Below are positions 3,634 through 56,726 of a stretch of 64,000 nucleotides of DNA, in pieces. The stretch comes from Acidobacteriota bacterium (lineage in GTDB: Bacteria; Acidobacteriota; Aminicenantia; Aminicenantales; UBA4085), in the NCBI GenBank assembly GCA_028749235.1, contig JAQULS010000001.1, positions 755 through 64,754 of the forward strand, written 5' to 3'. A program made the translations under genes and the position numbers. Within the stretch, counting starts at the first letter, position 1. Every line of letters starts with the position of its first letter. The notes under the pieces are model-generated. The model was not told the origin of the DNA and did not search any database. It saw only the letters and a list, made by a program, of their open reading frames with translations.

Positions 3634-3634
3634 G

Positions 3635-4219
3635 CTATTCGGCCGCCCGCCGGCCCGACTCGAAGGCTTTCAGGTTGGCCTCCAGGATGGCTTCGCCCCG
3701 CTTGGCAAAGAGCACGCGGACGAATTCGAGCAGCGCTTCCCGGCCCGGCAGAAGATGCCGGGACGCGGCGCCGAGCATGACCGTGTTCTGGGCCCGAACG
3801 GAGCCGGCTTCCTTGGCCAGGGCCTCGCTGTCCACGATGACGCTCCCCGGCAGGGCCCTGAGGCGGCCCAGCAGGGCGGCTTTGTCGGGATAGTCGGGGA
3901 TGTTGACGAAGGGGGTGCTGCTGGTCACGATCCGGCCGCCGGGTGCCAGGTAGTCGAGATAGCGCAGGGCTTCCAAGGGCTCGACGCTCAAGATCACATC
4001 GGCCCCGCCGCGCGGGATGAGATCGCTCCAGATCCGTTCGCTCGACAGCCGCAGGTGGGAGGTCACCGCGCCGCCCCGCTGGGCCATGCCGTGGACCTCG
4101 GCCTGCTTGACATGGTAGCCCTCCTTGAGGGCGGCGCTGTCGATGACGAAGGCGATCGACAGGATGCCCTGCCCGCCGACGCCGGCCAGGATGATGTCCT
4201 GCTTGCGCTTGTCGCTCAT
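3635..4219 (-). CDS. iorB: indolepyruvate:ferredoxin oxidoreductase subunit beta
   Basis: MSDKRKQDIILAGVGGQGILSIAFVI... is a typical IorB/2-oxoacid:ferredoxin oxidoreductase gamma-like fold. ATGA overlap with the iorA stop at 4216-4219. Confidence 0.85.
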   Translation of the reverse strand: MSDKRKQDIILAGVGGQGILSIAFVIDSAALKEGYHVKQAEVHGMAQRGGAVTSHLRLSSERIWSDLIPRGGADVILSVEPLEALRYLDYLAPGGRIVTSSTPFVNIPDYPDKAALLGRLRALPGSVIVDSEALAKEAGSVRAQNTVMLGAASRHLLPGREALLEFVRVLFAKRGEAILEANLKAFESGRRAAE

Positions 4220-25604: not shown

Positions 25605-27899
25605 TCAACGGACGACGATTTCGTCGACGAAGATCCAGGCCGCGCCGCCGGCCGAGGCGTGCCAGTCCGGGTTGGTTTTCATCCCCTCGACTTGAAGCCG
25701 TATGAAGCGCGGGCCGGCCGGCGCGACCGTCCACTCGAAGACGCGGACCGTCTCTTCCCGCCGCTGATCGCCGTCGATGATGACGGCGCCCACGGGACGC
25801 CAAGCCGTTCCGTCCGCGGACGCTTCGCACGTCACCCGGCGGGGATGAAAGATCCAGCTCTTGGGGTCGTAAAGCGTGCTGACGGCGATCGTCCGGGCAT
25901 CGCGCCCTTCGCCCAGGTCCAGAACGAGGCTGAAGTCGGTCCCCTCCCAGCCGAGCCAATGGACCTTGAAATCCCCGGCCCCGCGCACGCCGTCGGTGAG
26001 AAGAGCCAAGTCGCCCCGGCCGTACTTGGCCGCCGGCGGCGGATCGGCCGCGACGGGCCGACGGAAGGCCCGGTTGCCCTCGACCTGGACGTCGATGAAG
26101 CGACGGCCGGCATCGTAATAGTCCTTGGGAGTCAGGCCCGATTCATTGAGAGCCCGGACGCCGGCATCCAGGCAGCCCGTGTAAAAACGCTCCAGCAGGC
26201 GCGCCTTCTCCGGCCGCAAAATGAACCGGCCCTCCGTTTCGTCGTAGAATCCGCGCGGCCCGAACAGCTCGGCTTTTCCGATTTCGATCTCGGCGTAGAG
26301 GAACGGGAGCCGGGCCGAACGGACGCGGCGGAGCCGTTCGGGATCGGAGGCGACGGCCGTCTCAGCCAGGTCGAAGGCGGCGGCATAAGCGGCCAGGCGC
26401 TCGGCGGACAGGAAATCATCGGCGTGGGCGTTGGGCGGCTCGTAGATGCCCAGGTCCGTGCCCGAGGCGGCCAGGGACTCCCGGGCCGAGTCGATGACAC
26501 TTCGGATGAAAGGCGCGGCCGCCCCGTAATAGCCGGCCAGAAAATCGTTGACGGCCGCATCGACGTCCCGTTCGGGATTCCAGAGAAGCTTGGCCAGGAG
26601 CCAGCTCTTGAGCTCGGAGAGATCGTGCCCCGGCGAGGTGTTGGTCTGCTGGAAGTGCCGACGGATGCCGTAACCCGAGAAGAAGCGCAGGTTGGGCCGC
26701 AGGACATGAAGGTTGGGAAAAGGCGAGACTTGGTGGGCGAAATCGACGGTGTAGTCCCAGAGGTAGATGTTCTTGGTCAGCCGGCTCCAGTCCCCGATGT
26801 CCCGGACGAAGGAGGCGCTCGCGGGATCCTCGACGATGGGCCGGCTGCGGTTGAGCTCGATCGTGCAGAGCATGATCTGGACATTATCCGCCGGCCTGGT
26901 CAGACGGGGCGCGGGCCGGGAGAATTGATAGGCCAGGGTGGAAATGACCTTATCCGGAAAGCGGGAGGCCAGCCTGTTGACCAGGCGGAGGATCGGCCCG
27001 GCAGGCGAGCCCTCCTCGGCGATGATTTTTTCGCACTCCGGGCAGCGGCAATAAGTGGAATTGTCGTTCTGGCTGACCGACCAGACTCGCTTATCCGGCT
27101 GGGCGGCCATTTCCTTCGCCAGCCGGGCGGCAAGGATGTCGAAGACCTCGGGCCGCGAGGGGCAAAGCTGATCCGCGGTCCGCCGGCCGTTGACCAGGGC
27201 GAAATATTCCGGATGGTCCGCGAAATATTCATCGCGGGGAAGCAAACGGCCGAAGGAGTGGACATAGTAGCCGCGGGCGAATATCTCGTCCGTTTCGTTG
27301 AGCCTCATCCAGTCCCGATAGTCGGCGTCCTGGATGAATTCGCCGTTGACGCAGCGGAAATCGTTGGCCGGGTTGTCCCGATCGAAGACCCGGGGAAGAA
27401 ACAGCGACTCCGAGGCCGGGAAGAAATCGGCCGTGGGGCTGTACTTCCGGCAGCCGAGATATTTTTCGAGCAGATGAACGACGCCATAGATCGAGCCTTT
27501 GCCGCCGCCCGAGACGATGTAGACGGCCCGCTTCGAGACGACGGCCAGGAAGCCGTCCGGATGCAGTCCGGCGTATTGGGACCGGAAGGAGTCCGGGTAG
27601 ACGGATCGGGCGAACCCGAGCCAGACTTCTCCCTCCCGGACGGGGCGGGATTTTTCCACCACGGGCAGGACGGTCCCCGTCATCCGCCGCACGGCCTCCC
27701 GCAGGATTTCGGCCGCCCGGCGGTCGGCTGGAGCCGCTTCGGACGGCAGGACGATCGAACAGGCGGGCCGGCCGTCCCGGACCAGGGGGAATCCGTCCCC
27801 GGCGGGCGAAACGGAAAACCCGCCCGCAAAGGAGAAGGGCGCGGCCAGAGCCGCCAGGATCAAGACGGCGGCCGGGCGGAATCGCCTGGGCTTCGTCAT
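25605..27899 (-). CDS. secreted glycoside-hydrolase-like protein (DUF4838-like catalytic region) with C-terminal F5/8 type C (discoidin) carbohydrate-binding domain
   Basis: Signal peptide MTKPRRFRPAAVLILAALAAPFSFA. 764 aa. C-terminal discoidin-like segment (...KVHWLGWEGTDFSLVLDLGEGRDARTIAV...). Family assignment is by recollection of architecture, not search. Confidence 0.6.
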   Translation of the reverse strand: MTKPRRFRPAAVLILAALAAPFSFAGGFSVSPAGDGFPLVRDGRPACSIVLPSEAAPADRRAAEILREAVRRMTGTVLPVVEKSRPVREGEVWLGFARSVYPDSFRSQYAGLHPDGFLAVVSKRAVYIVSGGGKGSIYGVVHLLEKYLGCRKYSPTADFFPASESLFLPRVFDRDNPANDFRCVNGEFIQDADYRDWMRLNETDEIFARGYYVHSFGRLLPRDEYFADHPEYFALVNGRRTADQLCPSRPEVFDILAARLAKEMAAQPDKRVWSVSQNDNSTYCRCPECEKIIAEEGSPAGPILRLVNRLASRFPDKVISTLAYQFSRPAPRLTRPADNVQIMLCTIELNRSRPIVEDPASASFVRDIGDWSRLTKNIYLWDYTVDFAHQVSPFPNLHVLRPNLRFFSGYGIRRHFQQTNTSPGHDLSELKSWLLAKLLWNPERDVDAAVNDFLAGYYGAAAPFIRSVIDSARESLAASGTDLGIYEPPNAHADDFLSAERLAAYAAAFDLAETAVASDPERLRRVRSARLPFLYAEIEIGKAELFGPRGFYDETEGRFILRPEKARLLERFYTGCLDAGVRALNESGLTPKDYYDAGRRFIDVQVEGNRAFRRPVAADPPPAAKYGRGDLALLTDGVRGAGDFKVHWLGWEGTDFSLVLDLGEGRDARTIAVSTLYDPKSWIFHPRRVTCEASADGTAWRPVGAVIIDGDQRREETVRVFEWTVAPAGPRFIRLQVEGMKTNPDWHASAGGAAWIFVDEIVVR

Positions 27900-31879: not shown

Positions 31880-33244
31880 TCAGGCCGTGATGATGCCCAG
31901 CGGGGGGTTGGTCTTCCACAAGCCGCGGGTGAAGTCGGGGATCGCGACCGGCTTGCCCTTGGCCGCGACGCTGCGGCAGGAAGCCTCGACGACCGCGCTC
32001 CAGGCGGCCGCGTCGTAGACGTCCTGGTCCAGCGGCTCGCCTTTGCGCAGGGACTGGATCAGGCGGTAATCCTCGATGTAATCCATGCCGCCGTGGCCGC
32101 GGCCCTCGCCCTTCGAGGCGATGGCCTTCCATAACGGATGATCGTACTCGGCCGCGAACCTCTCGAAGTCGTCCCAGGCGTGGGCTTTTTCGGCCTTGCC
32201 CTCGACGTAGATCCGGTCGGGCCACTTGTGGGCCAGGCCCTTGGTCCCCTGGACCAGGTTGATGCGGGTATAAGGCCGGGGCAGGTTGGTGTCGTGGATG
32301 AGGATGATCGTCTTGCCCAGCTTGGTCCGGATCAGGGACGTATTGACGTCGCCCAAGACGAATTTCTCGGCCGCCTGGGGAGAGCCGGCGCCGAACTTCT
32401 CGACGGCGTACTCATGCAGCCCCCGCCCGGGCGAGCTCATCGAGACGAGGACGTCGAAGGCGTCGCCCCGGTTGATGTTCATGCACTGGGCCACGGGGCC
32501 GAGGCCGTGGGTCGGATAGAGGTTGCCGTTGAGCTTCTGGGCCCAGGCCCGCCGCCACAGGCCCTCGCCCTCCTTGGAGAACTTGACGTCGCGCAGGTCG
32601 TGCAGGTAGCCCGCCTCGGCGTGCAGGATCTCGCCCAGCAGGCCCTGCCGGACCAGGTTCAAGGTCATAAGCTCGATCCGGTCGTAGCAGCAGTTCTCCA
32701 TCATCTGGCAGTGCTTGCCGTACTTCTCGGCCGTCTCCACCAGGGCCCAGCAGTCGTCCAGGAACATCGCCGCCGGGACCTCGGTCGCGGCGTGCTTGCC
32801 GTTCTTCATGGCCGAGAGGCATACGGGGACATGCCACTCCCAGGGGGTCGCCGTCATGACCAGGTCGAGGTCCTCCTTCTCGCACATCCGCTCGAAGTCG
32901 CGGGGGCCGTTGGAGTAGCCCGCCGGCTTGGGCCGGCCGGCGTCCGTGCACATCTTCTGGGCCCGTTCGACCTTGGCCGGAACGATGTCGCAGATCGCCT
33001 TGATCTCCAGGCCGTCGATAGCCAGGTAGTTTTGGACATGGGACGAGCCCATGCCGCCGACGCCGACGAAGCCGACCCGGACGGTTTCGACCGGGGCCGT
33101 TTTGAACCCAGATCTGGCCTGCCCGGGGCGCGCGTTCGCCTCGCCCGGCAGCGTCAGGCCGGTCAGGGCCGTGCCCGCGGAAAGGACCGCTCCCGTTTTC
33201 AGAAAATCGCGGCGGGTGGTGCTTTGGGAATCATCCATGATCAT
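31880..33244 (-). CDS. TAT-exported Gfo/Idh/MocA family NAD-dependent oxidoreductase (GH109-like glycosidase architecture)
   Basis: Twin-arginine signal TRRDFLKTGAVLSAGTALTG. Rossmann motif VGFVGVGGMGSSH. 454 aa. Confidence 0.8.
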   Translation of the reverse strand: MIMDDSQSTTRRDFLKTGAVLSAGTALTGLTLPGEANARPGQARSGFKTAPVETVRVGFVGVGGMGSSHVQNYLAIDGLEIKAICDIVPAKVERAQKMCTDAGRPKPAGYSNGPRDFERMCEKEDLDLVMTATPWEWHVPVCLSAMKNGKHAATEVPAAMFLDDCWALVETAEKYGKHCQMMENCCYDRIELMTLNLVRQGLLGEILHAEAGYLHDLRDVKFSKEGEGLWRRAWAQKLNGNLYPTHGLGPVAQCMNINRGDAFDVLVSMSSPGRGLHEYAVEKFGAGSPQAAEKFVLGDVNTSLIRTKLGKTIILIHDTNLPRPYTRINLVQGTKGLAHKWPDRIYVEGKAEKAHAWDDFERFAAEYDHPLWKAIASKGEGRGHGGMDYIEDYRLIQSLRKGEPLDQDVYDAAAWSAVVEASCRSVAAKGKPVAIPDFTRGLWKTNPPLGIITA

Positions 33245-33386
33245 GCCTCCGATGCTTCTCGCGCTTCGTCCCCCCGTTTATACCCAATCCGGAATCCCCT
33301 GTAAAGGCGCTTGAGATTCTGGAGCGCCGGTTTGAATCTCGGGGCCTAAAAACGTAAAATGCGGATAGTCTGCTCTATAGCTATCC

Positions 33387-34679
33387 ATGGAAGACACTCT
33401 GTTCGAAAACGGCACGGTGGGCTGCGGCGGAGCCGGTTTCCCCGCCTCGGTCAAGCTCGCCGGGCACGTTGAGACCCTGATCGTCAACGCCGCGGAATGC
33501 GAGCCCCTTCTCCACAAGGATAAGGAGCTGTTGGTCCGCCGCGGCGACGAATTCTTCGCCGGGCTGGCCGAGGCGATGAGGCGGGTGACGGCCCGCCGGG
33601 GGATCATCGCCCTCAAGAAGAAATACGCCGATCTCGCCTCGTCCGTCGCCAAGCGATGCCCGTCGGACGTCGAAGTCCATCTCCTGGACGACGTTTATCC
33701 CGCGGGCGACGAATTCGTCCTGGTCTACGAAGTCACCGGCCGGATCATCGGGCCCGGCGGCCTGCCCAAGGACGTGGACGCCGTGGTCCAGAACGTGGAG
33801 ACGCTGGTCAATATCGGCCTCGCCCGTCCGGTGACCCGCAAGGCCCTGACCGTGGCCGGATTGGTGGCCCGCCCCATGACCCTGGAAGTTCCCGTCGGCG
33901 CGCCGTTCGCGGACATCCTGGCCGCCGCGGGGGGGGCTCTCGAGCCCGATTTCGGCGTCCTCGTCGGCGGAGTCATGATGGGCCGCCTGGCCGGCGATCT
34001 CTCGGAGCCGGTGACCAAGACGACGGCGGGATTGATCGTACTGCCGATAGACCATCCTCTCCTCCGCCGGCATGCCCGGCGTCCGGAGGCCGTGCGGCGG
34101 ATCGCCCGGGCGGCCTGCGACCAATGCACGTTCTGCACCGAGCTGTGCCCCCGCTACCTCCTGAACCATCCCGTCGAGCCCCACCGCGTCATGCGCAGCT
34201 TCGGCCTTGGAATTTCCGCCGACGGCGCCGCCCGCTACGCCCGGTATTGCTCCGGCTGCCGGTTGTGCAGCCTGGCCACCTGCCCCGAAGGGCTCGACCC
34301 ATCGGAGATCTGCGGCCTGGTCAAGAACGCGACCGCGCAGGGAAGCCCCCCCCGCGGCGAGAGCCCGGCCCCGAGGCCCCATCCCCTGCGGTTCGCCCGG
34401 CGCATGCCCACGGCCAGGCTGGTCCGCAAGCTCGGCCTGGAAGGGATGCCCGATCACGCCCCTTGGAGCTCCGTCCGGATCGCCCCGCGCCGCGTCCAGA
34501 TTCCGCTCCGCCAGCACGTCGGCGTGGCGGCCGAGCCGGTGGTGCGGGTCGGGCAAACCGTGAGCGAAGGCGACTGCATCGGACGGATCCCCGCCGGCAA
34601 GCTCGGGGCGCCGGTCCATGCCAGCATCGACGGGCGCGTAGTGTCCGTCGCGGACACGGTCGTGATCGAAGCCGAATAA
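33387..34679 (+). CDS. RnfC/PduS-like flavin- and Fe-S-containing NADH oxidoreductase (microcompartment-associated redox protein)
   Basis: 51-kDa-subunit-like nucleotide-binding site GCGGAGFPASVK. Two 4Fe-4S motifs (CDQCTFCTELCP and CSGCRLCSLATCP). C-terminal barrel-sandwich RnfC_N-like segment (LRQHVGVAAEPVVRVGQTVSEGDCIG...HASIDGRVVSV), i.e. the permuted order seen in PduS. Confidence 0.8.
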   Translation: MEDTLFENGTVGCGGAGFPASVKLAGHVETLIVNAAECEPLLHKDKELLVRRGDEFFAGLAEAMRRVTARRGIIALKKKYADLASSVAKRCPSDVEVHLLDDVYPAGDEFVLVYEVTGRIIGPGGLPKDVDAVVQNVETLVNIGLARPVTRKALTVAGLVARPMTLEVPVGAPFADILAAAGGALEPDFGVLVGGVMMGRLAGDLSEPVTKTTAGLIVLPIDHPLLRRHARRPEAVRRIARAACDQCTFCTELCPRYLLNHPVEPHRVMRSFGLGISADGAARYARYCSGCRLCSLATCPEGLDPSEICGLVKNATAQGSPPRGESPAPRPHPLRFARRMPTARLVRKLGLEGMPDHAPWSSVRIAPRRVQIPLRQHVGVAAEPVVRVGQTVSEGDCIGRIPAGKLGAPVHASIDGRVVSVADTVVIEAE

Positions 34680-34686
34680 GAAAACC

Positions 34687-35247
34687 ATGGACAACATCAA
34701 CAACATCGGGATCATGGAGCTCGGCTCGCTGGCCGCGGGCTACCGGGTCGAAGACGCGCTGCTGAAGACGGCGCCCGTTTCGATCCTGATCGCCCGGCCG
34801 ATCTGCTCGGGCAAGTTCCTGATCGTCGTGGCGGGCTCGGTCGCTTCCGTCAAGGCCTCGCTCGCCGGCGGCATCCGGGTCGGCGGCGAATCGATCATCG
34901 AGCATCGGATCATCAACAACCTGCATCCCGCGGTCCTGCCCGCCCTGGGGCTTGCCGTCGAGATCGGGACGGAATTGCCGGGCGCGCTCGGCATCGTGGA
35001 GACCTTCTCGGCGGCCGCCGCCGTGGAAGCCGCCGACGCGGCCGTCAAGAACGCCCCGATCGGGCTGTTCCGGATCCACTTGGCCATGGCCATGGGCGGG
35101 AAAGGCCTGGTGCTGTTTTGCGGCGGCCTGGGCGACGTCCGGGCCGGGCTGGACGCGGCCGTCGCCGTCATGGCCGAATCGGGCATGCTCGCGGGCAGCG
35201 CCCTGATTTCGGCCCCCTCGGCCGAGCTGCTGCGGGAATACATGTAA
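34687..35247 (+). CDS. BMC-T shell protein, tandem BMC domains, PduT-like (possible Fe-S pore)
   Basis: Two BMC-fold repeats (IGIMELGSLAAGYRVEDALLKTAPV and LGIVETFSAAAAVEAADAAVKNAPIG). Cys in ARPICSGKF, at a position comparable to the PduT cluster ligand. Confidence 0.8.
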   Translation: MDNINNIGIMELGSLAAGYRVEDALLKTAPVSILIARPICSGKFLIVVAGSVASVKASLAGGIRVGGESIIEHRIINNLHPAVLPALGLAVEIGTELPGALGIVETFSAAAAVEAADAAVKNAPIGLFRIHLAMAMGGKGLVLFCGGLGDVRAGLDAAVAVMAESGMLAGSALISAPSAELLREYM

Positions 35248-35259
35248 GGAGACAAGACG

Positions 35260-35988
35260 ATGGCGGGAACATTCGACCGGACAGCCGTCGAGAAGATCGT
35301 GCGGGACGTCCTGCGGGATCTTCCCAAGGCCGAGGGCGCACCGCGCGGTGACGGCCCGGCGACTCCTCTCCCGGTCAATGTATCGGCCCGCCATATCCAC
35401 CTCTGCCGCAAGGACTTCGAAGCGCTCTTCGGCCCGGGCGCCCAACCGACGCTCCTGCGGTCTCTCTATCAGGAGGGCCATTTCGCGGCCCGGGAGACCG
35501 TGGCCATTATCGGCCCCAAGAAGCGGATGATCCCGGAACTCCGCATCCTGGGCCCGCTGCGGGACCATTCGCAGGTCGAGCTGGCCTTCACCGACGTCAT
35601 CCACCTGGGGCTCGAAAACGTCCAAGTCCGCATGTCGGGAGACATCGAGGGCACGCCCGGGGCCTGGATCCAGGGTCCGGCCGGCATGCTGGAGTTGAAG
35701 CAGGGCGTGATCCGGGCGGCCCTGCACGTCCACATGAACGAGCGCGACGCGGCCCGGATGGGGGTCGTCCACAAGGGCTTTCTGGCCCTCCGGGTCGAAA
35801 GCGACGCCCCGGTCGTTTTCGGACGCGTCCACGTCCGCGTCGACCCGTCCTTCAAGCTCGAAGTCCACATGGACACGGACGAGGCCAACGCCTGCCACCT
35901 GGCGGCGGCCCGAAACGTGTCCCTGATTCCCGTACCCGGGAGCATCGAAAGTCCCGACGACATCCACCATAAAGGAGCGCGTGCATGA
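35260..35988 (+). CDS. pduL: phosphate acyltransferase PduL (phosphotransacylase)
   Basis: Two PduL repeats with the signatures VNVSARHIHLCRKDFEALFG and AALHVHMNERDAARMG. RBS aaggaga upstream. Confidence 0.85.
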   Translation: MAGTFDRTAVEKIVRDVLRDLPKAEGAPRGDGPATPLPVNVSARHIHLCRKDFEALFGPGAQPTLLRSLYQEGHFAARETVAIIGPKKRMIPELRILGPLRDHSQVELAFTDVIHLGLENVQVRMSGDIEGTPGAWIQGPAGMLELKQGVIRAALHVHMNERDAARMGVVHKGFLALRVESDAPVVFGRVHVRVDPSFKLEVHMDTDEANACHLAAARNVSLIPVPGSIESPDDIHHKGARA

Positions 35989-36275
35989 GAAAAGCATTGG
36001 GCATGATTGAGACGATCGGCTTCGTCCCCATGCTGGAAGCCACGGATGCGGCCTGCAAGGCCGCCCACGTGACCTTCCTCCATTGGGAGCCGGCCGGTTC
36101 GGGCATGGTCACGGCCTTCTTCGAGGGCGAGGTCGCCGCCGTCAAGGCCGCCGTCGACGCCGGCGCCGAGGCCGCGGCCAAGCTGGGCAAGGTCGTGGCC
36201 GCCCAGGTCATCCCGAATCCGTACCAGGATCTCGAGGCTTTCACCGCGGGGAAGCCCAAGCCCCGGACCGCTTGA
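35985..36275 (+). CDS. BMC-H shell protein (hexamer, PduA/EutM-like)
   Basis: ALGMIETIGFVPMLEATDAACKAAHV is the BMC (Pfam00936-like) core. 96 aa. Confidence 0.85.
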   Translation: MRKALGMIETIGFVPMLEATDAACKAAHVTFLHWEPAGSGMVTAFFEGEVAAVKAAVDAGAEAAAKLGKVVAAQVIPNPYQDLEAFTAGKPKPRTA

Positions 36276-36299
36276 AGCGGGCCGAGCGAGAGGACGCAA

Positions 36300-36581
36300 A
36301 TGAGCAATCAAGCCATCGGCATGCTGGAAACGCGGGGCATGGTCGGGCTGGTCACGGCCGGTGACGCCATGTGCAAGGCCGCCAACGTGACCATGATCCG
36401 GACGGTCGAGATCGGCGGCGGCTTCGTCACCACCGTGGTCAAGGGCGAAGTCGGCAGCGTCAAGGCCGCCGTCGAAGCCGGGCTGCTGACCCTGAAGGCC
36501 GTGGGGGCCGAGATCATCGCCGCCCACGTCATCCCCCAGCCGCACGATTCCACCCTCGGGCTCGTGGACAAGAAAGGCTGA
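36300..36581 (+). CDS. BMC-H shell protein (hexamer, PduA/PduJ-like)
   Basis: AIGMLETRGMVGLVTAGDAMCKAANV. 93 aa. Confidence 0.88.
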   Translation: MSNQAIGMLETRGMVGLVTAGDAMCKAANVTMIRTVEIGGGFVTTVVKGEVGSVKAAVEAGLLTLKAVGAEIIAAHVIPQPHDSTLGLVDKKG

Positions 36582-36594
36582 GGCGCCGGCCGTC

Positions 36595-37767
36595 ATGAAG
36601 ATCCTGGTGCCGAACATCGGCAGCACGTCGTTCAAGTATCGGCTCATCGATATGGACGGCGAGGCCGTGCTCGGCGAGGGCAAGATCGAGCGCATCGGCC
36701 GGCCCGGCGGCGACTGCCCCGATTACCCCGCCGCCATCCGGCGCTGCCTGGACGCGCTGGTCGGCCCGGGCAAGCCGCTGGCCGCCCTGGACGAGCTGTC
36801 GGCCGTGGGCTTCAAGGCCGTTCACGCCCACGGGCTGACGGGCGCCGTGCCCGTGACGCCGGAAGTCCTGGCGGCCATGGAGGAATACGCCTTTCTCCTG
36901 CCGGCCCACAACCCGCCCTATGTCGCGGCCATGAAGGCCTTCGCCGCCGCGGCGCCCACGGTCCCGTCCGTGGCGCTTTTCGAGACGGCCTTTTTCACGG
37001 ACATGCCCGAGGCGGCCTCCATCTACGCCGTGCCTTGGTCGTGGCGGGAGGAGGACGGGGTGCGGCGTTTCGGCTTCCACGGCGCCAGCCACCGCTATGC
37101 CAGCGACCAGGCGCGGCGTCTGGTCGGGCGGGACGGGCTGGCCCACATTTCCTGCCACCTGGGCGGCAGCTCGAGCCTGGCCGCCGTCAAGGACGGCCGG
37201 GCCGTCGACACCAGCTTCGGCATGACCCCCCAGAGCGGCATCCCCCAGAATAACCGGGTCGGAGACGTCGACGTCTTCGCCGTGCTGTATCTCATGAAAA
37301 AACACGGGCTCGGCCCCGACGAGATGGCCCGGACGCTGGCCCAGGAATCCGGGCTGGCCGGCATCTCGGGCCTCAGCGGCGACGTCCGCGACCTCGAGGC
37401 CGCGGCGGCCCGGGGACACGAGCGGGCCCGGCTGGCCCTGGAAGCCTATGTCTACGCCGTGCGCCGCTTCCTGGGGGCCTTCCTGATCGAGCTCGGCAAG
37501 GTCGATGTGATCACCTTCTCCGGCGGCATCGGCGAGCACTCGGCCTGGGTCCGGCGGCGCGTCCTGCGCGGCCTGGAGCCGTTCGGCATCATCCTCGACG
37601 ATCGTCGCAACGAGGCGGCGGAGAAAAACACGCGCATCTCCGCCGAGTCCTCGCCGGCGCAGGTCTGGGTCGTCGAGACCAACGAAGAGATCGTCGTGGC
37701 CCGGGCCGCGGCGGACGTCCTGAAAAGAATCCAAGCGGAAAAATCGGCGGGACGCGCGGCGTCCTGA
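36595..37767 (+). CDS. ackA: acetate/propionate kinase
   Basis: MKILVPNIGSTSFKYRL is the acetokinase N-terminal signature. Also ...VGFHGASHRYA... 390 aa. Confidence 0.88.
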   Translation: MKILVPNIGSTSFKYRLIDMDGEAVLGEGKIERIGRPGGDCPDYPAAIRRCLDALVGPGKPLAALDELSAVGFKAVHAHGLTGAVPVTPEVLAAMEEYAFLLPAHNPPYVAAMKAFAAAAPTVPSVALFETAFFTDMPEAASIYAVPWSWREEDGVRRFGFHGASHRYASDQARRLVGRDGLAHISCHLGGSSSLAAVKDGRAVDTSFGMTPQSGIPQNNRVGDVDVFAVLYLMKKHGLGPDEMARTLAQESGLAGISGLSGDVRDLEAAAARGHERARLALEAYVYAVRRFLGAFLIELGKVDVITFSGGIGEHSAWVRRRVLRGLEPFGIILDDRRNEAAEKNTRISAESSPAQVWVVETNEEIVVARAAADVLKRIQAEKSAGRAAS

Positions 37768-37785
37768 GACAAAGGAGTTCCTATC

Positions 37786-38061
37786 ATGGTGAATCCGGCG
37801 ATCGGAATGATCGAAACGCGGGGCCTGACGGCCCTGGTCATGGCCACCGACGCGATGCTCAAGGCGTCGGCGGTGGAGTTCATGGGCTGGCGGAAGGTCG
37901 GCAGCGGTTTGTGCTCCGCCTACGTCAAGGGCGACGTGGCCGCCGTGCGGACCTCCCTGGACGCCGGCATCGCCATCGCCCGCGAGGTCGGCCAAATCGT
38001 CAACACCCAGGTCCTGTCGCGCCCCCACGACGAGATCCAGGGCATGGTCCCGAAGCGCTGA
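37786..38061 (+). CDS. BMC-H shell protein (hexamer)
   Basis: AIGMIETRGLTALVMATDAMLKASAV. 91 aa. Confidence 0.88.
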   Translation: MVNPAIGMIETRGLTALVMATDAMLKASAVEFMGWRKVGSGLCSAYVKGDVAAVRTSLDAGIAIAREVGQIVNTQVLSRPHDEIQGMVPKR

Positions 38062-38080
38062 CCGGGCGCGGAGTCAAGAC

Positions 38081-38378
38081 CATGCTACTGGCCAAAGTCA
38101 TGGGGACGGTCGTCTCTTCGCAGAAGCACGCCAAGTTCCAGGGTATGAAGCTTTTCCTCATCCAACCCTGCGGTAGCTCCGATAAGAAGCTCGTCCCGCA
38201 GGGCGGCAGCTTGGTCGCCGTCGACTGCGTGACCTGCGGCGTCGGCGACCTGGTCCTCTTCACCCAGGGCAGCTCGGCCCGCATGACCGAGTGCACCAAG
38301 GACAGCCCCGTCGACGCCGTGATCATCGGCATCGTCGATGCCGTCGAGGTCCACGGCAAGCCCCTGGGGAAGCCCTAG
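38081..38378 (+). CDS. BMC-P vertex (pentamer) protein, EutN/PduN/CcmL family
   Basis: MLLAKVMGTVVSSQK... is the typical BMC-P N-terminus. 99 aa from ATG 38081 within a longer track ORF. Confidence 0.8.
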
Positions 38379-38402
38379 CCGGGGAAGGGAGCGCGTTCGG
38401 CC

Positions 38403-39866
38403 ATGATGAGTTTCCCCCCTCCTCCTCCCTACCGCGACCTGGACATCCCGGCCGTCGTGGCCGAGGTCGTCCGCCGGATGTCCGCCGAGCGGGCCGCCGG
38501 AAGCGCCGCGGACGCCGCGGCCGGCCCGGAGCCCGCGCATCCCGGGGCGGACGGCGTCTTCCCGACCGTCGACGAAGCCGTGGCGGCCGCCCGCCGGGCC
38601 CAGCCCAAGCTGGCCGCGCTGACCCTCGACCAGCGGGGCCTCATCGTCGACATCATCAAGAAATACTGCGTGGAAAACGCCGCGGAGCTGGCCCACATGG
38701 AGTTCCAAGAGTCCCGCATCGGGCGGGAGGACCACAAGCTCCAGAAGCTGACCATCATCTCCAAGGTCCTCGGCGTCGAGTCCCTGCGGACCAGGGTCCG
38801 GGTCGACGACACCGGGACCGAGTTCATCGCCGCCGCCCCTTTTGGCGTCATCGGCATGGTCACGCCGGCGACGCACAGCGTCCCGACCATGGCCGGCAAC
38901 GCCATCAACGTCATCGCGGCCGGGAACACGGCCGTCTTTTCGCCCCACCCCGCGGCCAGCCGCTGCCTGCAGTACGCCTTGAAGCAGATCAACCGGAGAA
39001 TCCGGGCCAAAACGGGGCTGGAGAACCTGATCACCACCATGGCCAAGCCGTCCATCGAGGCGGCCGGCGAGCTCTTCCGTCATCCGGGCATCGCCATTCT
39101 CAACATCACCGGCGGCCCGGCCGTCGTCAAGGCGGCCATGAAAGCCGGCAAGCGGGTCATCGCCGCGGCGCCGGGCAACCCGCCCGTCGTCGTCGACGAG
39201 ACCGCCGACATCCCGGCCGCCGTCAAGCACATCATCTTCGGGGCCTCCTTCGACAACAACCTCCTGTGCCTCGGCGACAAGGAGGTCTTCGTCGTCGAAG
39301 CGGTCATGGACGAGTTTATGACAGCCATGCGCCGGGCGGGAGCGGTCGAGCTCGCTCCCGGCCAGATCGAGCGCCTGGCCCAGGCCGCCTTCGTCCTCGA
39401 CAAGGCCTCCGGCGAGCGGCACGTGAACCGCGACTTCGTCGGGAAAAGCGCGGCCGTCCTGGGCCGGGCGGCGGGCGCGATCGTAGCCGACTCCGTCGAC
39501 CTGCTGTTCGGCGAGACGGAGGAGAACCATCTTTTCGTCCAGGAGGAGCAGATGATGCCGTTCCTCCCGATCGTCCGGGTCAAGGACGTCGACGCCGCGA
39601 TCGCGGCGGCCAAGCGGGCCGAGCACGGCTACCATCACTCGGCCATGATCCACACCCGGAACGACGAGACGGCCCGGCGGATGGCCCGCATCCTGGACAC
39701 CACCCTGTTCGTCCGCAACGCGGCCTGCACGGCGGCCCTCGGCGTCGACGGGCCGGGCTACCTGAGCTACAGCATCGCCACGGCCACCGGCGAGGGAGTG
39801 ACGACGCCGCTGACCTTCACCCGCCAGCGGCAGATGATCATCGGCGGCCGCTACGACTATTTTTAA
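38403..39866 (+). CDS. CoA-acylating aldehyde dehydrogenase (PduP/EutE family) with N-terminal encapsulation-peptide-like extension
   Basis: Catalytic Cys context FDNNLLCLGDKEV. PduP-like length (487 aa). N-terminus has a Pro-run (PPPPPY) followed by an amphipathic helix DIPAVVAEVVRRMSAE. Confidence 0.85.
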   Translation: MMSFPPPPPYRDLDIPAVVAEVVRRMSAERAAGSAADAAAGPEPAHPGADGVFPTVDEAVAAARRAQPKLAALTLDQRGLIVDIIKKYCVENAAELAHMEFQESRIGREDHKLQKLTIISKVLGVESLRTRVRVDDTGTEFIAAAPFGVIGMVTPATHSVPTMAGNAINVIAAGNTAVFSPHPAASRCLQYALKQINRRIRAKTGLENLITTMAKPSIEAAGELFRHPGIAILNITGGPAVVKAAMKAGKRVIAAAPGNPPVVVDETADIPAAVKHIIFGASFDNNLLCLGDKEVFVVEAVMDEFMTAMRRAGAVELAPGQIERLAQAAFVLDKASGERHVNRDFVGKSAAVLGRAAGAIVADSVDLLFGETEENHLFVQEEQMMPFLPIVRVKDVDAAIAAAKRAEHGYHHSAMIHTRNDETARRMARILDTTLFVRNAACTAALGVDGPGYLSYSIATATGEGVTTPLTFTRQRQMIIGGRYDYF

Positions 39867-39883
39867 ACCGAGGAGAGAATCCG

Positions 39884-40171
39884 GTGTACCTGGCGAGAAT
39901 CGAGGGCTCGGCGGTGACGACCCTTCACCACAAGAGCCTGGTCGGCCGCAAGCTGCTCATCGCCCGGCGCTGCGAGCCCGACGGCCGTCTGGCGGCCGAG
40001 CCGGTACTGGCCCTCGACGCCGTGGGAGCGGGCCTGGGCGACCTGGTCCTGATCTCCACGGACGGCGAGCTGGCCCGCAGCCTGACCGGCCACAAGACGG
40101 CGCCCGTGCGCCTGACGGCCGTGGGCATCGTCGACGCCGTCGACGGACCGAAGCCGGGAGACATCCGATGA
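39884..40171 (+). CDS. BMC-P vertex (pentamer) protein, second paralog
   Basis: VYLARIEGSAVTTLHHKSLVGRKLLIARR...LISTDGELARSL...AVGIVDAVD. GTG start with RBS aggagag. Hidden in the track as the tail of a spurious 626-aa ORF. Confidence 0.7.
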   Translation: MYLARIEGSAVTTLHHKSLVGRKLLIARRCEPDGRLAAEPVLALDAVGAGLGDLVLISTDGELARSLTGHKTAPVRLTAVGIVDAVDGPKPGDIR

Positions 40172-40461
40172 GGCTGGGCATCGTCAAGGGAACCGTGGTC
40201 CTCGGCCGCGGGCTGGCCGCCCTGGAGGGCACCCGCTACCTGATCATCGAGCCCTTGACGTCGGACGACCTGAAAGCCGGCGCCACCCGGGGAAGCGGCC
40301 GGGAAGTCGTGGCCGCCGATCACCTGGCCCCCGGCCCGGGGCAAATGGTCTGCTTTGAAGAGGGCCGCGAAGCCTGCGCTCCGTGGCTTCCGGCCGGCGT
40401 CCCGATCGACGCCTACGTCAGCGGCATCATCGACTCGATATCCTATCAACCGGCGGAATGA
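40168..40461 (+). CDS. BMC-P vertex (pentamer) protein, third paralog
   Basis: MRLGIVKGTVVLGRGLAALEGTRYLIIEPL... 97 aa. ATGA overlap with the previous gene. Confidence 0.78.
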   Translation: MRLGIVKGTVVLGRGLAALEGTRYLIIEPLTSDDLKAGATRGSGREVVAADHLAPGPGQMVCFEEGREACAPWLPAGVPIDAYVSGIIDSISYQPAE

Positions 40462-40465
40462 CAAC

Positions 40466-41587
40466 ATGAAACAGCTTTCCCTGCGGGGCCAAAACGTGAT
40501 TTCGGGCGCGGTCATCGGCCAGGCGGCGCGCGACGGCTGCACGGAGATCCTCATCGACGGCGACGCGGTCGTCACCTCGCTGGCCCTGGATTCCGCCGCG
40601 ATGGCGGGCATCCGCCTCGTCCGCGAAGGAGACGCCCGCCGCTTCGACGCCCCCGCCGGGGCCTTCGCCGCCGCGGGCGGGCCGGCTTCCCCCGAGGTCC
40701 TGTTTGCGTCCGCCGAGGCGCGGGCCGCCAAGGACGAGATCGTGGCCGTCGGCAGGAAGCTCTGGCAGCGATCCTACGTCGACGGCAACGGCGGCAACAT
40801 CTCCTGCCGGATCGGGGACAAGCACGTCCTGTGCACGCCGACCCTGGTCAGCAAGGGCGACCTTACCCCGGACGACCTCTGCCTGGTCGATCTGGACGGG
40901 AACCAGATCGCGGGCCGCAGGAAAAAGACGAGCGAGATCCTGCTCCACCTGGAGATCATGAAGGCCCAGCCCAAGGCCCGGGCCTGCGTCCATGCCCATC
41001 CCCCGCATGCCACGGCCTACGCCATCACGGGCATGGTGCCGCCCGTGCGGGTCATCCCCGAAGCCGAGATCTTCGTCGGATACGCCGCCTTCGCCCCCTA
41101 CGGCACGCCCGGCACGGCCGACATCTCCCGCCACGTCGTCGAGCTCGTCGCCGACCACAACACCATCCTGCTGGGAAATCACGGCGTCATCTGCTGGGCC
41201 GACACGCCCCTGCGCGCCGAATGGTGCATCGAGATCCTCGAGACCTACTGCCAGACGCTCCTTATCGCCTCGCAGTTGAACGTCCCGATCAAGACGATCC
41301 CCTCGGACAAGTCCGCCGCCCTCCTCGACACCAAGAGAAAGTTGAATCTGCCCGATCCCCGCTTGAGCGGACGGGCATGCGACGGGGAGGACCTCGGGAG
41401 CGAGCTGACCGGCATCACCGTCTGCCCGGGCGCCTGCGCCGCCGGCAACGGCCCCTGCCGGCTGAACGGATCGTGCGACTGCCCGCGGGAGCGGACCGGG
41501 ACGCCGGTTCCGAAGCGCGCGAGCGGCGAATCCGAGGCCCTGATCGGCCGCATCGTCGACGAGGTCATGAAGGCCCTCGGCCGATAG
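40466..41587 (+). CDS. class II aldolase/adducin-family protein (fuculose/rhamnulose-1-phosphate aldolase-like) with N-terminal extension, Cys-rich C-terminal segment and terminal encapsulation-peptide-like helix
   Basis: Aldolase core (WQRSYVDGNGGNISCR, HAHPPHATAYAI, LLGNHGVICW). Extra 80 aa at the N-terminus. C-terminal CPGACAAGNGPCRLNGSCDCP then EALIGRIVDEVMKALGR. Confidence 0.8.
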   Translation: MKQLSLRGQNVISGAVIGQAARDGCTEILIDGDAVVTSLALDSAAMAGIRLVREGDARRFDAPAGAFAAAGGPASPEVLFASAEARAAKDEIVAVGRKLWQRSYVDGNGGNISCRIGDKHVLCTPTLVSKGDLTPDDLCLVDLDGNQIAGRRKKTSEILLHLEIMKAQPKARACVHAHPPHATAYAITGMVPPVRVIPEAEIFVGYAAFAPYGTPGTADISRHVVELVADHNTILLGNHGVICWADTPLRAEWCIEILETYCQTLLIASQLNVPIKTIPSDKSAALLDTKRKLNLPDPRLSGRACDGEDLGSELTGITVCPGACAAGNGPCRLNGSCDCPRERTGTPVPKRASGESEALIGRIVDEVMKALGR

Positions 41588-43475: not shown

Positions 43476-44198
43476 TCATTCGGCGGCGATGGCGTTGAGC
43501 GCCTTGCGCCGCTCCTTCCAATCCGGCAGGCACCGGGCCAATAGCGAGTAGAAAGACGCGCCGTGGTCGTGATGCTTGAGGTGGCAGAGCTCGTGCAGGA
43601 CGACGTACTCGACGAGAGACGGAGCCGTTTGCACCAGGCGGGTATTGAAGACGATGCGCCCGTCCCGGCCGCAGCTCCCCCAGCGCCTTTTCATCCAGCG
43701 GAGAGACCACGGCGGCGCGGCGAGGCCGCCGAAGGGATCCGCCTCCAAGCCCCGGTCCAGGGCCGCCGCGAGAACCTGCCCGGCCCGCCGCTTAAGCCAG
43801 GATTCGATCCTGCGGCGGACGGCCTCCCGGTCATGGATGTCCGCGACGGGCACGACGAGAACGCCGTCCGCGAATGCCGCCCGCCTGGCCCGGCCCGGCT
43901 CGATCTTCACGGGATAGGTTTGGCCGAGGATCGAGATCAGGCCCGTTTCGGCGGACTTCGCCGGGGCATGCAATCGGATGCGGGTTTCGCTCTTTCGGAC
44001 GGCGCGTTCGATCCAGGCGGCCTTCTCGCGGGCGAAGGCCAGGACCCGGGCCGGAGCGACGCCGCGGGGGACGGAGGCCCGGACGCGGCCGTCGTCGAGA
44101 ACGGCAATCCGTATCCGCCGCCCCTTGCCCCGCTCCAGAGAAAGGGGGATTTTCCGGGAAGCCGTCTCGAGGATCAGGGTTTCCGCCGCGGGCCTCAC
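43476..44198 (-). CDS. M48-family/DUF45 (YgjP-like) metal-dependent hydrolase
   Basis: HELCHLKHHDH zinc-binding HExxH context near the C-terminus. 240 aa. Confidence 0.75.
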   Translation of the reverse strand: MRPAAETLILETASRKIPLSLERGKGRRIRIAVLDDGRVRASVPRGVAPARVLAFAREKAAWIERAVRKSETRIRLHAPAKSAETGLISILGQTYPVKIEPGRARRAAFADGVLVVPVADIHDREAVRRRIESWLKRRAGQVLAAALDRGLEADPFGGLAAPPWSLRWMKRRWGSCGRDGRIVFNTRLVQTAPSLVEYVVLHELCHLKHHDHGASFYSLLARCLPDWKERRKALNAIAAE

Positions 44199-45763
44199 CC
44201 GAGAAGCTTCCTCTTCTTCAGCCAGCGCTCGCGCAGGCGGACGCTGTCCAGGCCGAGGCAGGCGCCGCCGGACAGGGGATTCTTGCCCAGGCCTTCGAAG
44301 CGCAGGGTGTGCTTGCCCGTCTTCAGGGTGTAGCTCCCCAGGTAGTGCTCCTGGACGAAGAGCGTCTTGGCGTAGAGGTCGTAGTCCTTGGTCTTCTGGC
44401 CGGCCATGTAGTCCTCGGGCTGACCGATGACCTTGCCGTCCAGGAAGATGCGCCAGATGCCGGAATTCTCGGCATGGGTCAGCCAGAGCATGAGGCCTCG
44501 GTACTCTTCCTTGTCCACCGTGAACTCGACTTCGAACACGGGATGGTCGAAGACGGGCTGGAAGAGGATCTGCCCCTCCCCCGTCCAGTCGTAGCCCTTC
44601 TCGAGGCTCACGACCCCGTCCGAGTGCTTGGCCGTCGGGAGCATGGTCTTGGCTTCGATCACCCGGTCGAGCTCGGGCAGGATCCGGTCCGCGAGCGGCG
44701 GCAGTTTGGTGAACCGCTTGGGCTGGCCGATCTGGTACCAGAAGGCGACCGTGGCGATATCGTCCTCGCGCTCGACGTGGCCCTCGGTCTTGCCGCTCTC
44801 CGTCTCGTCGCCGGTGATCCAGCCGGTGTGCTCGATCTCGAAGCGCAGCGACTTGGTGAAGCGGACCGGATCCGGGATGTGCCAGCGGTAGAGCGTGTAG
44901 CGGGCCCCCAGGTCCTCGAAGTCCGGGCTCATGAAGGTGCAGCCGAAATAAGGATAGAGGGCCTGGTTCAAGCCCCAGGCCATCAGGAAATAGTCCTCCG
45001 TCCCCGTGCCCTGAATGCTCGGCTTCGCGTCGCCGTCGACGTAAAACTTGGCGTCGCCCTCGCCGAACCAGAAGGGGCTGCGGGAGCGCGCCGAAAGGAC
45101 GGTGCCGATGTAATGCCCTTCGCCCTCGGCGTCCAGGATCAGGTAGTCGTGCCCCGTCTTCTCGGGGAACTCGTTGCGGTACTGGGCGCAGAAATATCCC
45201 GTCCGGGGCGGCACGGGCTGCTCGGTGTAGTCGATGTGATAGTAGAAGGAGCGGACGTTCTTGGCTCCTTCATTGGTCACGGTGATGAGGCCGCGCTTAT
45301 GGAAAGGCATCGGAAAGTAGACGTTGTAGCCGTCGCCGCCCTCGACCATCATCGGCAGGGAGGCGATCTCGCGCCGCGCGCCGAAGCCCGCGGCGAAGAA
45401 GTCGCCGAGCGGCGCCTCGACCGCCGGCTCCTTGGCGTCGTCCCAGTACATCCGCAGGACGATCTCGTCGGGGCGGGCCGAGCCGGTCGGCTCCAGCCAG
45501 TTCGGCCGGGCCTCGTTGAAGGTCAGCCAGATGTGGTTGATCACCGCCGGTCCCTTGATGTCGGCCAGGACCTTGGTCTCGCCGGGGACGATGTACCGGA
45601 CGCGGTCGCCGTTGCCGGCCGGATTCGGATCGGCGGACGTGACCGCTTTCGACCGGCCCGGCTGGATTTGGGCCAACCCGGCCAGGTCTTGCGCGGACAG
45701 CCCGGCGGCGACGAGAAGCAGGAACCCGGCCGTCAGGAGACGGCGGGAGACGAATGAGCGCAT
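44195..45763 (-). CDS. secreted DUF2961 domain protein (family reported as glycoside hydrolase GH172)
   Basis: Signal peptide. Conserved DUF2961-like regions (GTGTEDYFLMAWG, YRWHIPDPVRF). 522 aa. Family call from memory of motif pattern. Confidence 0.6.
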   Translation of the reverse strand: MRSFVSRRLLTAGFLLLVAAGLSAQDLAGLAQIQPGRSKAVTSADPNPAGNGDRVRYIVPGETKVLADIKGPAVINHIWLTFNEARPNWLEPTGSARPDEIVLRMYWDDAKEPAVEAPLGDFFAAGFGARREIASLPMMVEGGDGYNVYFPMPFHKRGLITVTNEGAKNVRSFYYHIDYTEQPVPPRTGYFCAQYRNEFPEKTGHDYLILDAEGEGHYIGTVLSARSRSPFWFGEGDAKFYVDGDAKPSIQGTGTEDYFLMAWGLNQALYPYFGCTFMSPDFEDLGARYTLYRWHIPDPVRFTKSLRFEIEHTGWITGDETESGKTEGHVEREDDIATVAFWYQIGQPKRFTKLPPLADRILPELDRVIEAKTMLPTAKHSDGVVSLEKGYDWTGEGQILFQPVFDHPVFEVEFTVDKEEYRGLMLWLTHAENSGIWRIFLDGKVIGQPEDYMAGQKTKDYDLYAKTLFVQEHYLGSYTLKTGKHTLRFEGLGKNPLSGGACLGLDSVRLRERWLKKRKLLG

Positions 45764-55556: not shown

Positions 55557-56726
55557 ATGACACATGTTTACCTCGACGCCTTCGCCGGCTTGAGCGGCGA
55601 TATGATGCTGGGGGCGCTTCTCGACCTGGGCGTCTCCCGGGCCAAGTTCCGCAAGGCCGTCGCCTCCCTGGACCTGCCGATCCGGCTCGTCATCCACGAC
55701 GTCGAACGATCGCATCTGCGCGGCCTCAAGGTCGACGTTCTGATCGCTTCCCCGGGCTCCCCGGCCCGCCGCTTCGCCGACGTCGAGCGCTTCCTGCGCC
55801 GGGCTCCCTTGGCCCCGGCGGTGCGGGAGCGAAGCCGGGCCGTCTTCGAGACCCTCTTCCGGGCCGAGGCCAAGGTTCACGGCGAACCGTTCGATCGCGT
55901 TCATCTGCACGAGGCCGGGGCGGACGACGCCCTGGCGGACGTCGTCGGGACCTGCTGGCTGCTCGATGAGCTGGGCGTCACGGACCTGGCCTGCTCGCCG
56001 CTCAACGTCGGCTCGGGCTGGGTCAAGACGTCGCACGGCGTCCTGCCCGTGCCGCCGCCGGCCGTGGCCGAGCTTCTGCGGGGCCTGCCCGTCTATGCCG
56101 CCCACGCCGAGGCGGAGCTCGTCACTCCGACCGGGGCCGCCCTGGTCAAGACGCTCGCCTCCCGCTTCGTCCCGTTCCCCGAGCTGACCTACGACCGGAT
56201 CGGCTGCGGGGCGGGCGGCCGCGACCTGCCCGGCCTGCCCAACGTCCTGCGGGCCTTTGGCGGCTCGCGGCCCGTCCTCGATCCCGGCCGCCGGGTCTAC
56301 CGGATCGAGGCGACGATCGACGACTCCACGCCTCAGGTCCTGGCCGCCTTTCTCGACCGGGCCCTGGAGCTCGGGGCCCTGGACGCCTTCCTGGCGCCCG
56401 TGGTCATGAAAAAGGGCCGGCTGGGGACGCAGCTGACGCTGCTGGCCGATGCCGCGCGCCTGGACCGTCTGATCCAGGCCGTCTTCGAGGAGACCAGCTC
56501 GATCGGCGTCCGCTACCACGCCGTCGAGCGCCGGACCCTGGAGCGGACGATGGAGAAAGCCGCCCTGCTGGGGGCCTCCATCAGGATCAAGACGGCCCGG
56601 ATGGGCGGCCGGGTCGTCAACGCCCAGCCCGAGTACGACGACTGCCTGGCTCTGGCCCGCCGCAAGGGCCTGCCGCTGCGTGACGTTCAGCGGCTGGCCG
56701 CGGCCGCCCACGCGCTGCGGAAATGA
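55557..56726 (+). CDS. larC: nickel-pincer cofactor biosynthesis protein LarC (DUF111 family nickel insertion protein)
   Basis: [25 protein letters not shown] is the canonical DUF111/LarC N-terminus. 389 aa. Confidence 0.8.

Follow-up and report, generated by a model that had tools for sequence, protein, structure and literature searches.

A PduS/PduT-like gene pair at the head of a PVM-type microcompartment operon in Acidobacteriota: a probable module for NAD+ recycling by electron export

The subject of this work is a pair of neighbouring genes in a 64,000-nucleotide stretch of DNA (here called the window) from an Acidobacteriota bacterium (assembly GCA_028749235.1, contig JAQULS010000001.1, positions 755 to 64,754). 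The first gene encodes a PduS-like flavo-iron-sulfur protein and the second a PduT-like tandem-domain shell protein. The pair is probably a module that recycles NAD+ by exporting electrons from a bacterial microcompartment (BMC) of the Planctomycetes/Verrucomicrobia (PVM) type, matching the pair that Sutter et al. (PNAS 2024; PMC11626177) renamed from PduS and PduT to MNdh (metabolosome NADH dehydrogenase) and BMC-T^SE. From this homology we infer the binding of the clusters, the face of the shell on which MNdh sits, the direction of electron flow and the acceptor, and from the gene set and the PVM literature the substrate.

The two open reading frames (ORFs) lie on the forward strand at 33387-34679 (MNdh, 430 residues) and 34687-35247 (BMC-T^SE, 186 residues), separated by 7 nt, with the same boundaries as in the original prediction, which had been made from the letters of the DNA without database searches. 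They head a tightly packed operon of 12 genes (33387-41587), in keeping with the claim made there that the pair leads the locus. The GC content of the window is ~67% and likely genes were picked using a third-position GC filter; the values for MNdh (0.87) and BMC-T (0.92) are typical of coding sequence in the window. Proteins identical to both (P0001 and P0121) are recorded from one Acidobacteriota metagenome-assembled genome (MAG).

Sequence and predicted structure of the two proteins

Pfam finds in MNdh a Complex1_51K domain at residues 7-143 (E 4e-34), an SLBB domain at 155-199, a Fer4_17 domain at 243-304 and an RnfC_N domain at 366-428 (E 8e-14). This is the four-domain order of PduS, namely PF01512, PF10531, a 4Fe-4S dicluster and a C-terminal PF13375. 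The nearest relative with a solved structure is the RnfC subunit of the Rnf ferredoxin:NAD+ oxidoreductase (7zc6_C, 9eri_C and 8ahx_C; E 2e-38, ~29% identity). The alignment to 7zc6_C falls into two swapped pieces, in which MNdh 370-425 matches RnfC 33-87 and MNdh 6-265 matches RnfC 128-386. Judged from the alignment, this swap is the circular permutation that sets PduS apart from RnfC, with the RnfC_N barrel N-terminal in RnfC and C-terminal in MNdh; a permuted PduS order ending in such a barrel had been proposed from the sequence, and both Pfam and the two-piece alignment bear it out. RnfC and MNdh have in common the FMN/NADH site and both 4Fe-4S clusters, but the partner is a membrane complex in Rnf and a shell protein for MNdh, and there are no rnf genes near the MNdh gene.

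The sequence GCGGAGFP, originally recognised as a flavin mononucleotide (FMN) and NADH site of the type found in the 51-kDa subunit of complex I, is at residues 12-19. In an alignment of 25 sequences (52-81% identity) this glycine-rich loop and the motif NAAECEP are invariant, the positions concerned being G12, G14, G15, G17, F18, P19, K23 and N34-A36-E37-C38-E39-P40, and they align to GMGGATFP and NAAECEP in RnfC. The two 4Fe-4S motifs noticed at the outset are C244-x2-C247-x2-C250-x3-C254-P and C288-x2-C291-x2-C294-x4-C299-P, the last spacing in the second being x4. Their eight cysteines are invariant in the same alignment and 100% conserved in 120 homologues. Two cysteines beyond these eight ligands, C38 (33498-33500) and C309 (34311-34313), are also 100% conserved in the 120 homologues; C38 is within the AECEP motif common to RnfC, and C309 is just past the second cluster motif.

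The AlphaFold2 model of MNdh has a pLDDT of 88.3 and a pTM of 0.90. The best matches to it in the PDB are RnfC chains, with a TMq of ~0.63 over ~330 columns, which is the kind of partial match that a sequential aligner gives on a permuted protein. Since domains, motifs, cysteines and model are all intact, MNdh is not a degenerate relic, and the conservation of the FMN and Fe-S ligands rules out in particular a decayed RnfC. The NCBIfam models PrdC, RnfC and RsxC all match MNdh below their cutoffs, and NCBIfam has no PduS model.

BMC-T contains two BMC domains (Pfam, E 2e-31) and has the single-layer tandem PF00936 fold. A phmmer search against PDB sequences identified 3nwg, the Citrobacter PduT 3pac and the Salmonella PduT C38S variant 3n79, with E values of ~1e-32 to 1e-34. 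The motif RPICSGKF is at residues 37-44, and its cysteine, Cys40, falls on Cys38 of 3pac (KTICPGKF) and on the engineered Ser38 of 3n79, in an alignment that is gapless over the N-terminal domain. The original view of a tandem-BMC protein with a cysteine placed like the PduT ligand is therefore correct. Cys38 of PduT has been reported as a ligand of a [4Fe-4S] cluster in the central pore, on the trimer axis. By analogy, Cys40 would lie on the axis of the BMC-T trimer and hold a [4Fe-4S] cluster together with its two symmetry mates. The AlphaFold2 model of the monomer (pLDDT 89) superimposes with a TM score of 0.91 on 3nwg and 0.82-0.84 on the PduT structures 3n79 and 3pac, and puts Cys40 in the loop that joins strand 32-38 to strand 44-50.

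At the position of Cys40, all of the 120 closest homologues and all 78 BMC-T genes found beside related MNdh genes have a cysteine. The motif around it is C-S-G-K in 119 of the 120 closest database homologues; across the 78 loci, where it was mapped from tblastn alignments, it is C-S-G-K in 73 and C-P-G-K in 5.

A pair of this kind has an experimental precedent. Axen et al. (2014) found homologues of PduS and PduT, with the cluster cysteine conserved, in GRM1 loci that are free of B12, and suggested that electrons are shuttled across the shell (PMC4207490). In the survey of Sutter et al. (PMC11626177), which covered more than 7,000 loci, 2,172 carried the pair; the two genes were neighbours in 97% of these, and 361 loci had the pair but lacked an alcohol dehydrogenase. 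For the GRM1 pair of Clostridium botulinum they reported that NAD+ is regenerated in vitro, with electrons leaving the shell by way of FMN and three 4Fe-4S clusters; the evidence came from activity assays, X-ray footprinting, electron paramagnetic resonance (EPR) and voltammetry. The window pair has the same permuted four-domain architecture, eight Fe-S cysteines and FMN/NADH motifs, and its MNdh gene likewise adjoins a gene for a single-layer tandem-BMC trimer with a pore cysteine. The locus encodes an acylating aldehyde dehydrogenase but nothing that depends on B12, and it falls within the published class that lacks an alcohol dehydrogenase. It differs in having the motif C-S-G-K and in belonging to a PVM-type compartment of an acidobacterium. 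The carriers listed by Sutter et al. include the PVM type, with 20 occurrences, and the ACI type, with 7; 18 of the 20 PVM occurrences are at satellite loci, whereas the window pair is in the main operon. It is worth adding that the C. botulinum pair has been characterised biochemically, while the acidobacterial clade is known here from genes and models.

The compartment and its proposed chemistry

After the pair, the operon continues on the forward strand with a PduL-type phosphotransacylase (35260-35988; Pfam PTAC, E 1e-63 from residue 38; NCBIfam PRK15070 above cutoff), two BMC-H shell proteins (35985-36275 and 36300-36581; Pfam BMC, E 1e-25 and 5e-22), an acetate/propionate-family kinase (36595-37767; Pfam Acetate_kinase, E 1e-94; TIGR00016 above cutoff) and a third BMC-H protein (37786-38061; Pfam BMC, E 2e-24). 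These are followed by the first of three BMC-P vertex proteins (38082-38378), a CoA-acylating aldehyde dehydrogenase, which is the producer of NADH (AldDH, 38403-39866; Pfam Aldedh; NCBIfam PRK15398, 533 bits against a cutoff of 403), the second and third BMC-P proteins (39884-40171 and 40168-40461; Pfam EutN_CcmL, E 7e-22 and 2e-13), and a class II aldolase (40466-41587; Pfam Aldolase_II at residues 90-264, E 4e-45), the signature enzyme that generates the aldehyde.

Two of the BMC-P genes are masked in a mechanical list of ORFs. That at 38082-38378 is the tail of a same-frame ORF, 37911-38378, which begins at an upstream GTG and overlaps the preceding BMC-H gene; it was identified from its translation, its NCBIfam CcmL/EutN matches and the presence of a 98-residue EutN gene at the same position in the related locus L001 (described below). 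That at 39884-40171, which has a GTG start and a homologue in L001 that is also of 95 residues, is hidden by a long spurious ORF, 38291-40171, whose tail it occupies. When both are counted, the locus has the BMC-P triplet that is typical of PVM compartments.

AldDH has an amphipathic N-terminal extension (DIPAVVAEVVRRM) and PduL also has one; these are probably encapsulation peptides, in line with the aldehyde dehydrogenase having been taken as encapsulated from the beginning. The C-terminal helix of the aldolase, ..EALIGRIVDEVMKAL, is conserved across 41 orthologues and looks like an encapsulation peptide too. The helix is preceded by a cysteine-rich linker, CPGACAAGNGPCRLNGSCDC, whose cysteines vary among the 41 orthologues while the helix is kept, and the aldolase also has an N-terminal extension of ~85 residues with no Pfam match. 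No extension resembling an encapsulation peptide is present on MNdh.

Upstream of the MNdh gene is a divergent intergenic region of 142 bp, on the other side of which a GH109-like oxidoreductase of the Gfo/Idh/MocA family with a twin-arginine (TAT) signal is encoded on the reverse strand (31880-33244). A consensus scan places a promoter-like site on the forward strand of this region (TTGAAT-17-TAAAAT, 33332-33360, 9 of 12 matches); such matches are weak, with 2 sites against 0.9 expected in shuffled sequence. A scan for terminators 3' of the aldolase gene gave nothing convincing.

The operon is of the PVM type: it has the class II aldolase, AldDH, PduL, acetate kinase and BMC-H genes together with the BMC-P triplet, all in the PVM order. 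The signature aldolase, the gene order and the triplet are shared with the PVM fucose/rhamnose compartments. The differences are that the host is an acidobacterium, that BMC-T and MNdh are added at the 5' end, and that both the DeoR regulator and the NAD+-regenerating alcohol dehydrogenase of the lactate/malate dehydrogenase type are absent from the window. The ACI type, which the host phylum would suggest, has a hydroxyacid dehydrogenase (PF00389/PF02826) in the locus and its AldDH at a satellite locus (PMC8217296); it was ruled out here, as there is no such hydroxyacid dehydrogenase and AldDH is inside the operon.

The B12-dependent diol dehydratase of the 1,2-propanediol (PDU) type is absent from all the likely genes scanned in the window. 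The pair is homologous to PduS and PduT of Salmonella and Citrobacter, with the same PduS domain order, but PduQ, the alcohol dehydrogenase of the PDU system, is lacking as well. Pfam scans of ~50 likely genes, covering the window from 1 to 64 kb, found no B12-dependent enzyme, no alcohol dehydrogenase (neither of the iron-dependent Fe-ADH type nor of the lactate/malate dehydrogenase type) and no DeoR regulator, and neither the operon nor the rest of the window encodes a diol dehydratase, an ethanolamine ammonia-lyase or an adenosyltransferase. The original statement that there is no B12-dependent enzyme thus stands for the 64-kb window, and it is to that stretch that it applies.

The gene set and the PVM literature together suggest the following carbon pathway. 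The class II aldolase would release an aldehyde inside the shell, most likely lactaldehyde from fuculose phosphate or rhamnulose phosphate. AldDH would then convert the aldehyde to the acyl-CoA, reducing NAD+ to NADH, and PduL and the acetate-family kinase would convert the acyl-CoA through the acyl phosphate to the acid, with substrate-level formation of ATP. Fucose or rhamnose may be the substrate of the compartment, the support from context being the FGGY kinase, isomerase-like and MFS genes that lie beside a relative of this operon (L003, below).

By homology to the tested C. botulinum pair, the NADH would be reoxidised at the shell. MNdh would be attached to the BMC-T^SE trimer on the lumenal side and would oxidise NADH at its FMN, from where electrons would pass through its two 4Fe-4S clusters to the cluster held by three copies of Cys40 on the trimer axis. 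They would leave this shell cluster for a cytoplasmic acceptor, for example ferredoxin, flavodoxin or O2. As no alcohol dehydrogenase is encoded in the window, the module is the only system for regenerating NAD+ that is seen for this compartment, and the argument for NAD+ recycling is correspondingly stronger.

Points against the proposal and alternative explanations

Several observations weigh against the assignment of the pair to an electron-export module. An alcohol dehydrogenase could lie outside the 64-kb window. In the published work, AlphaFold docking was ambiguous on which face of the trimer MNdh binds (PMC11626177). The pore motif is C-S-G-K, with Cys, Gly and Lys kept and Pro replaced, and not literally the CP(G/S)K that is given as universal for BMC-T^SE (PMC11626177); this discrepancy may be a matter of notation only. 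BMC-T scores 97.7 bits against the 250.3-bit cutoff of the NCBIfam eut_PduT equivalog TIGR02526, which indicates a diverged relative and not an EUT/PDU orthologue; as the NCBIfam matches of MNdh are also below cutoff, no equivalog assignment can be made for either protein. Finally, no candidate ferredoxin or flavodoxin acceptor is encoded next to the operon.

The alternative that survives best, although we think it improbable, is that there is no relay across the shell. MNdh would then be a lumenal or cytosolic diaphorase passing electrons to O2 or to a small diffusible acceptor, or else an aldehyde reductase, and the cysteine would have another role, for example in a redox-gated pore. The departure of the motif from CP(G/S)K fits this idea, as does the lower modelling confidence of the block 131-140, which contains the pore loop of the second BMC domain (mean pLDDT 66). 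A speculation of Axen et al. is that PduS could stand in for the alcohol dehydrogenase (PMC4207490), and O2 served as electron acceptor in vitro (PMC11626177). However, the MNdh and BMC-T genes are almost strictly adjacent, and the cysteine is absolutely conserved only in those BMC-T proteins that are paired with MNdh; these two facts are hard to explain unless the proteins function together.

Electrons might also flow in the opposite direction, from a low-potential donor in the cytoplasm through the shell cluster to MNdh, which would reduce NAD+ or another lumenal acceptor. Within Rnf complexes, modules of the RnfC type can run both ways, and the 2-oxoacid:ferredoxin oxidoreductase encoded at 3635-5820 means that reduced ferredoxin may be available. 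Against this, the sole NAD-dependent enzyme encoded for the lumen is AldDH, which produces NADH, and the operon has no reductase that would consume it. The published EPR and voltammetry favour flow from NADH through FMN and the clusters to the outside (PMC11626177). We consider reverse flow more improbable still.

The least probable alternative, with hardly any chance of being right, is the role first assigned to Salmonella PduS, in which MNdh would reduce cobalamin to restore the adenosylcobalamin needed by a B12-dependent enzyme, with PduT as no more than a component of the shell: some database sources do label close homologues 'cobalamin reductase' (P0014, P0059), but the signature enzyme here, a class II aldolase, depends on a metal, the RnfC-like fold has been argued to leave scant room for a corrin (PMC11626177), and the role was rejected because a B12-binding enzyme is absent from the operon, from the window and from the two related loci that were fully listed (L001 and L003).

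Export of electrons for NAD+ recycling thus remains the preferred function of the pair. The same idea, recycling of NAD+/NADH through a shell Fe-S cluster, was reached in the original prediction and is supported here by homology. It is a rediscovery, having already been published with experimental support in 2024 (PMC11626177), and as the mechanism had by then been proposed, named and tested, it matters little as a discovery.

Recurrence of the module and its significance

The MNdh alignment was scanned against one genome per species, giving 80 loci, which were then searched with the twelve proteins of the window operon. A BMC-T gene adjoins the MNdh gene in 75 of the 80 and is ~9 kb away in one. 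In the other four no BMC-T was found; in three of these the contig ends within ~300 bp of MNdh, and the fourth has ~2 kb of contig beyond MNdh, without a BMC-T gene. The pair heads a PVM operon, as in the window, in 12 loci (seven from Acidobacteriota, three from Planctomycetota, one from Chitinivibrionales and one labelled Coriobacteriia). In a further 34, all from Acidobacteriota, it is divergent from the operon and adjoins it, and in 28, mostly from Planctomycetota, Sumerlaeota and Omnitrophota, it is isolated within the flanking sequence. In Acidobacteriota, the module is therefore usually joined to a PVM-type main operon and is not at a satellite locus.

The related loci L001 and L002 have an MNdh that is 78% identical to that of the window and the same operon order. 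In L003 MNdh is 53% identical, and its gene is divergent beside a PVM operon that has DeoR, FGGY kinase, isomerase-like and MFS genes in its flanks. The PVM order of enzyme and shell genes recurs in L001, L003 and the Planctomycetales locus L070. There is no B12-dependent enzyme in L001 or L003, except for an unrelated radical-SAM gene ~7 kb upstream in L001. MAGs labelled Coriobacteriia (L011), Acidimicrobiia (L007) and Hyphomicrobium (L037) carry an MNdh that is 72%, 54% and 51% identical to that of the window, which is within the range of the Acidobacteriota loci, and in L011 the full operon is present as well, ordered as in the window. The MNdh genes in these three are the result of either mis-binning or recent horizontal transfer.

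Other genes in the window give some idea of the host. Besides the GH109-like gene, there are a protein with DUF4838 and F5/8 type C domains (25605-27899) and a DUF2961 protein (44195-45763), and the three suggest a polysaccharide-degrading neighbourhood. On the reverse strand, 1273-5820 holds genes for a protein resembling ADP-forming acyl-CoA synthetases and for two subunits of a 2-oxoacid:ferredoxin oxidoreductase, which hints at the use of ferredoxin by the organism; ferredoxin could take electrons from the shell cluster. The product of 55557-56726 on the forward strand is a nickel-insertion protein of the LarC type (PF01969), a family that matures the cofactor of lactate racemase; a link to lactate from a compartment that oxidises lactaldehyde is speculative.

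The local differences from the known module, the C-S-G-K motif and the placement in the main operon, are small. A more far-reaching reading, which seems to us unlikely, is that soil Acidobacteriota have a PVM-type metabolosome that does without recycling by an alcohol dehydrogenase and is obligately dependent on electron export, with a retuned C-S-G-K site. It draws on the fact that MNdh and BMC-T^SE are built into the main operon and on the clade-specific motif, in which the change from Pro to Ser could retune the potential of the cluster, its oxygen tolerance, the cluster type or the choice of acceptor. If true, the oxidation of sugar-derived aldehydes in the organelle would be coupled directly to the respiration of a host living under aerobic or microaerobic conditions.

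The case illustrates that a reader who has the sequence alone can recover a published mechanism. For the family, the documented range of the module now extends to PVM-type main operons of the Acidobacteriota, which are abundant soil bacteria, and the consistency of the C-S-G-K variant means that motif-based classifiers should allow for a cluster motif other than CP(G/S)K.

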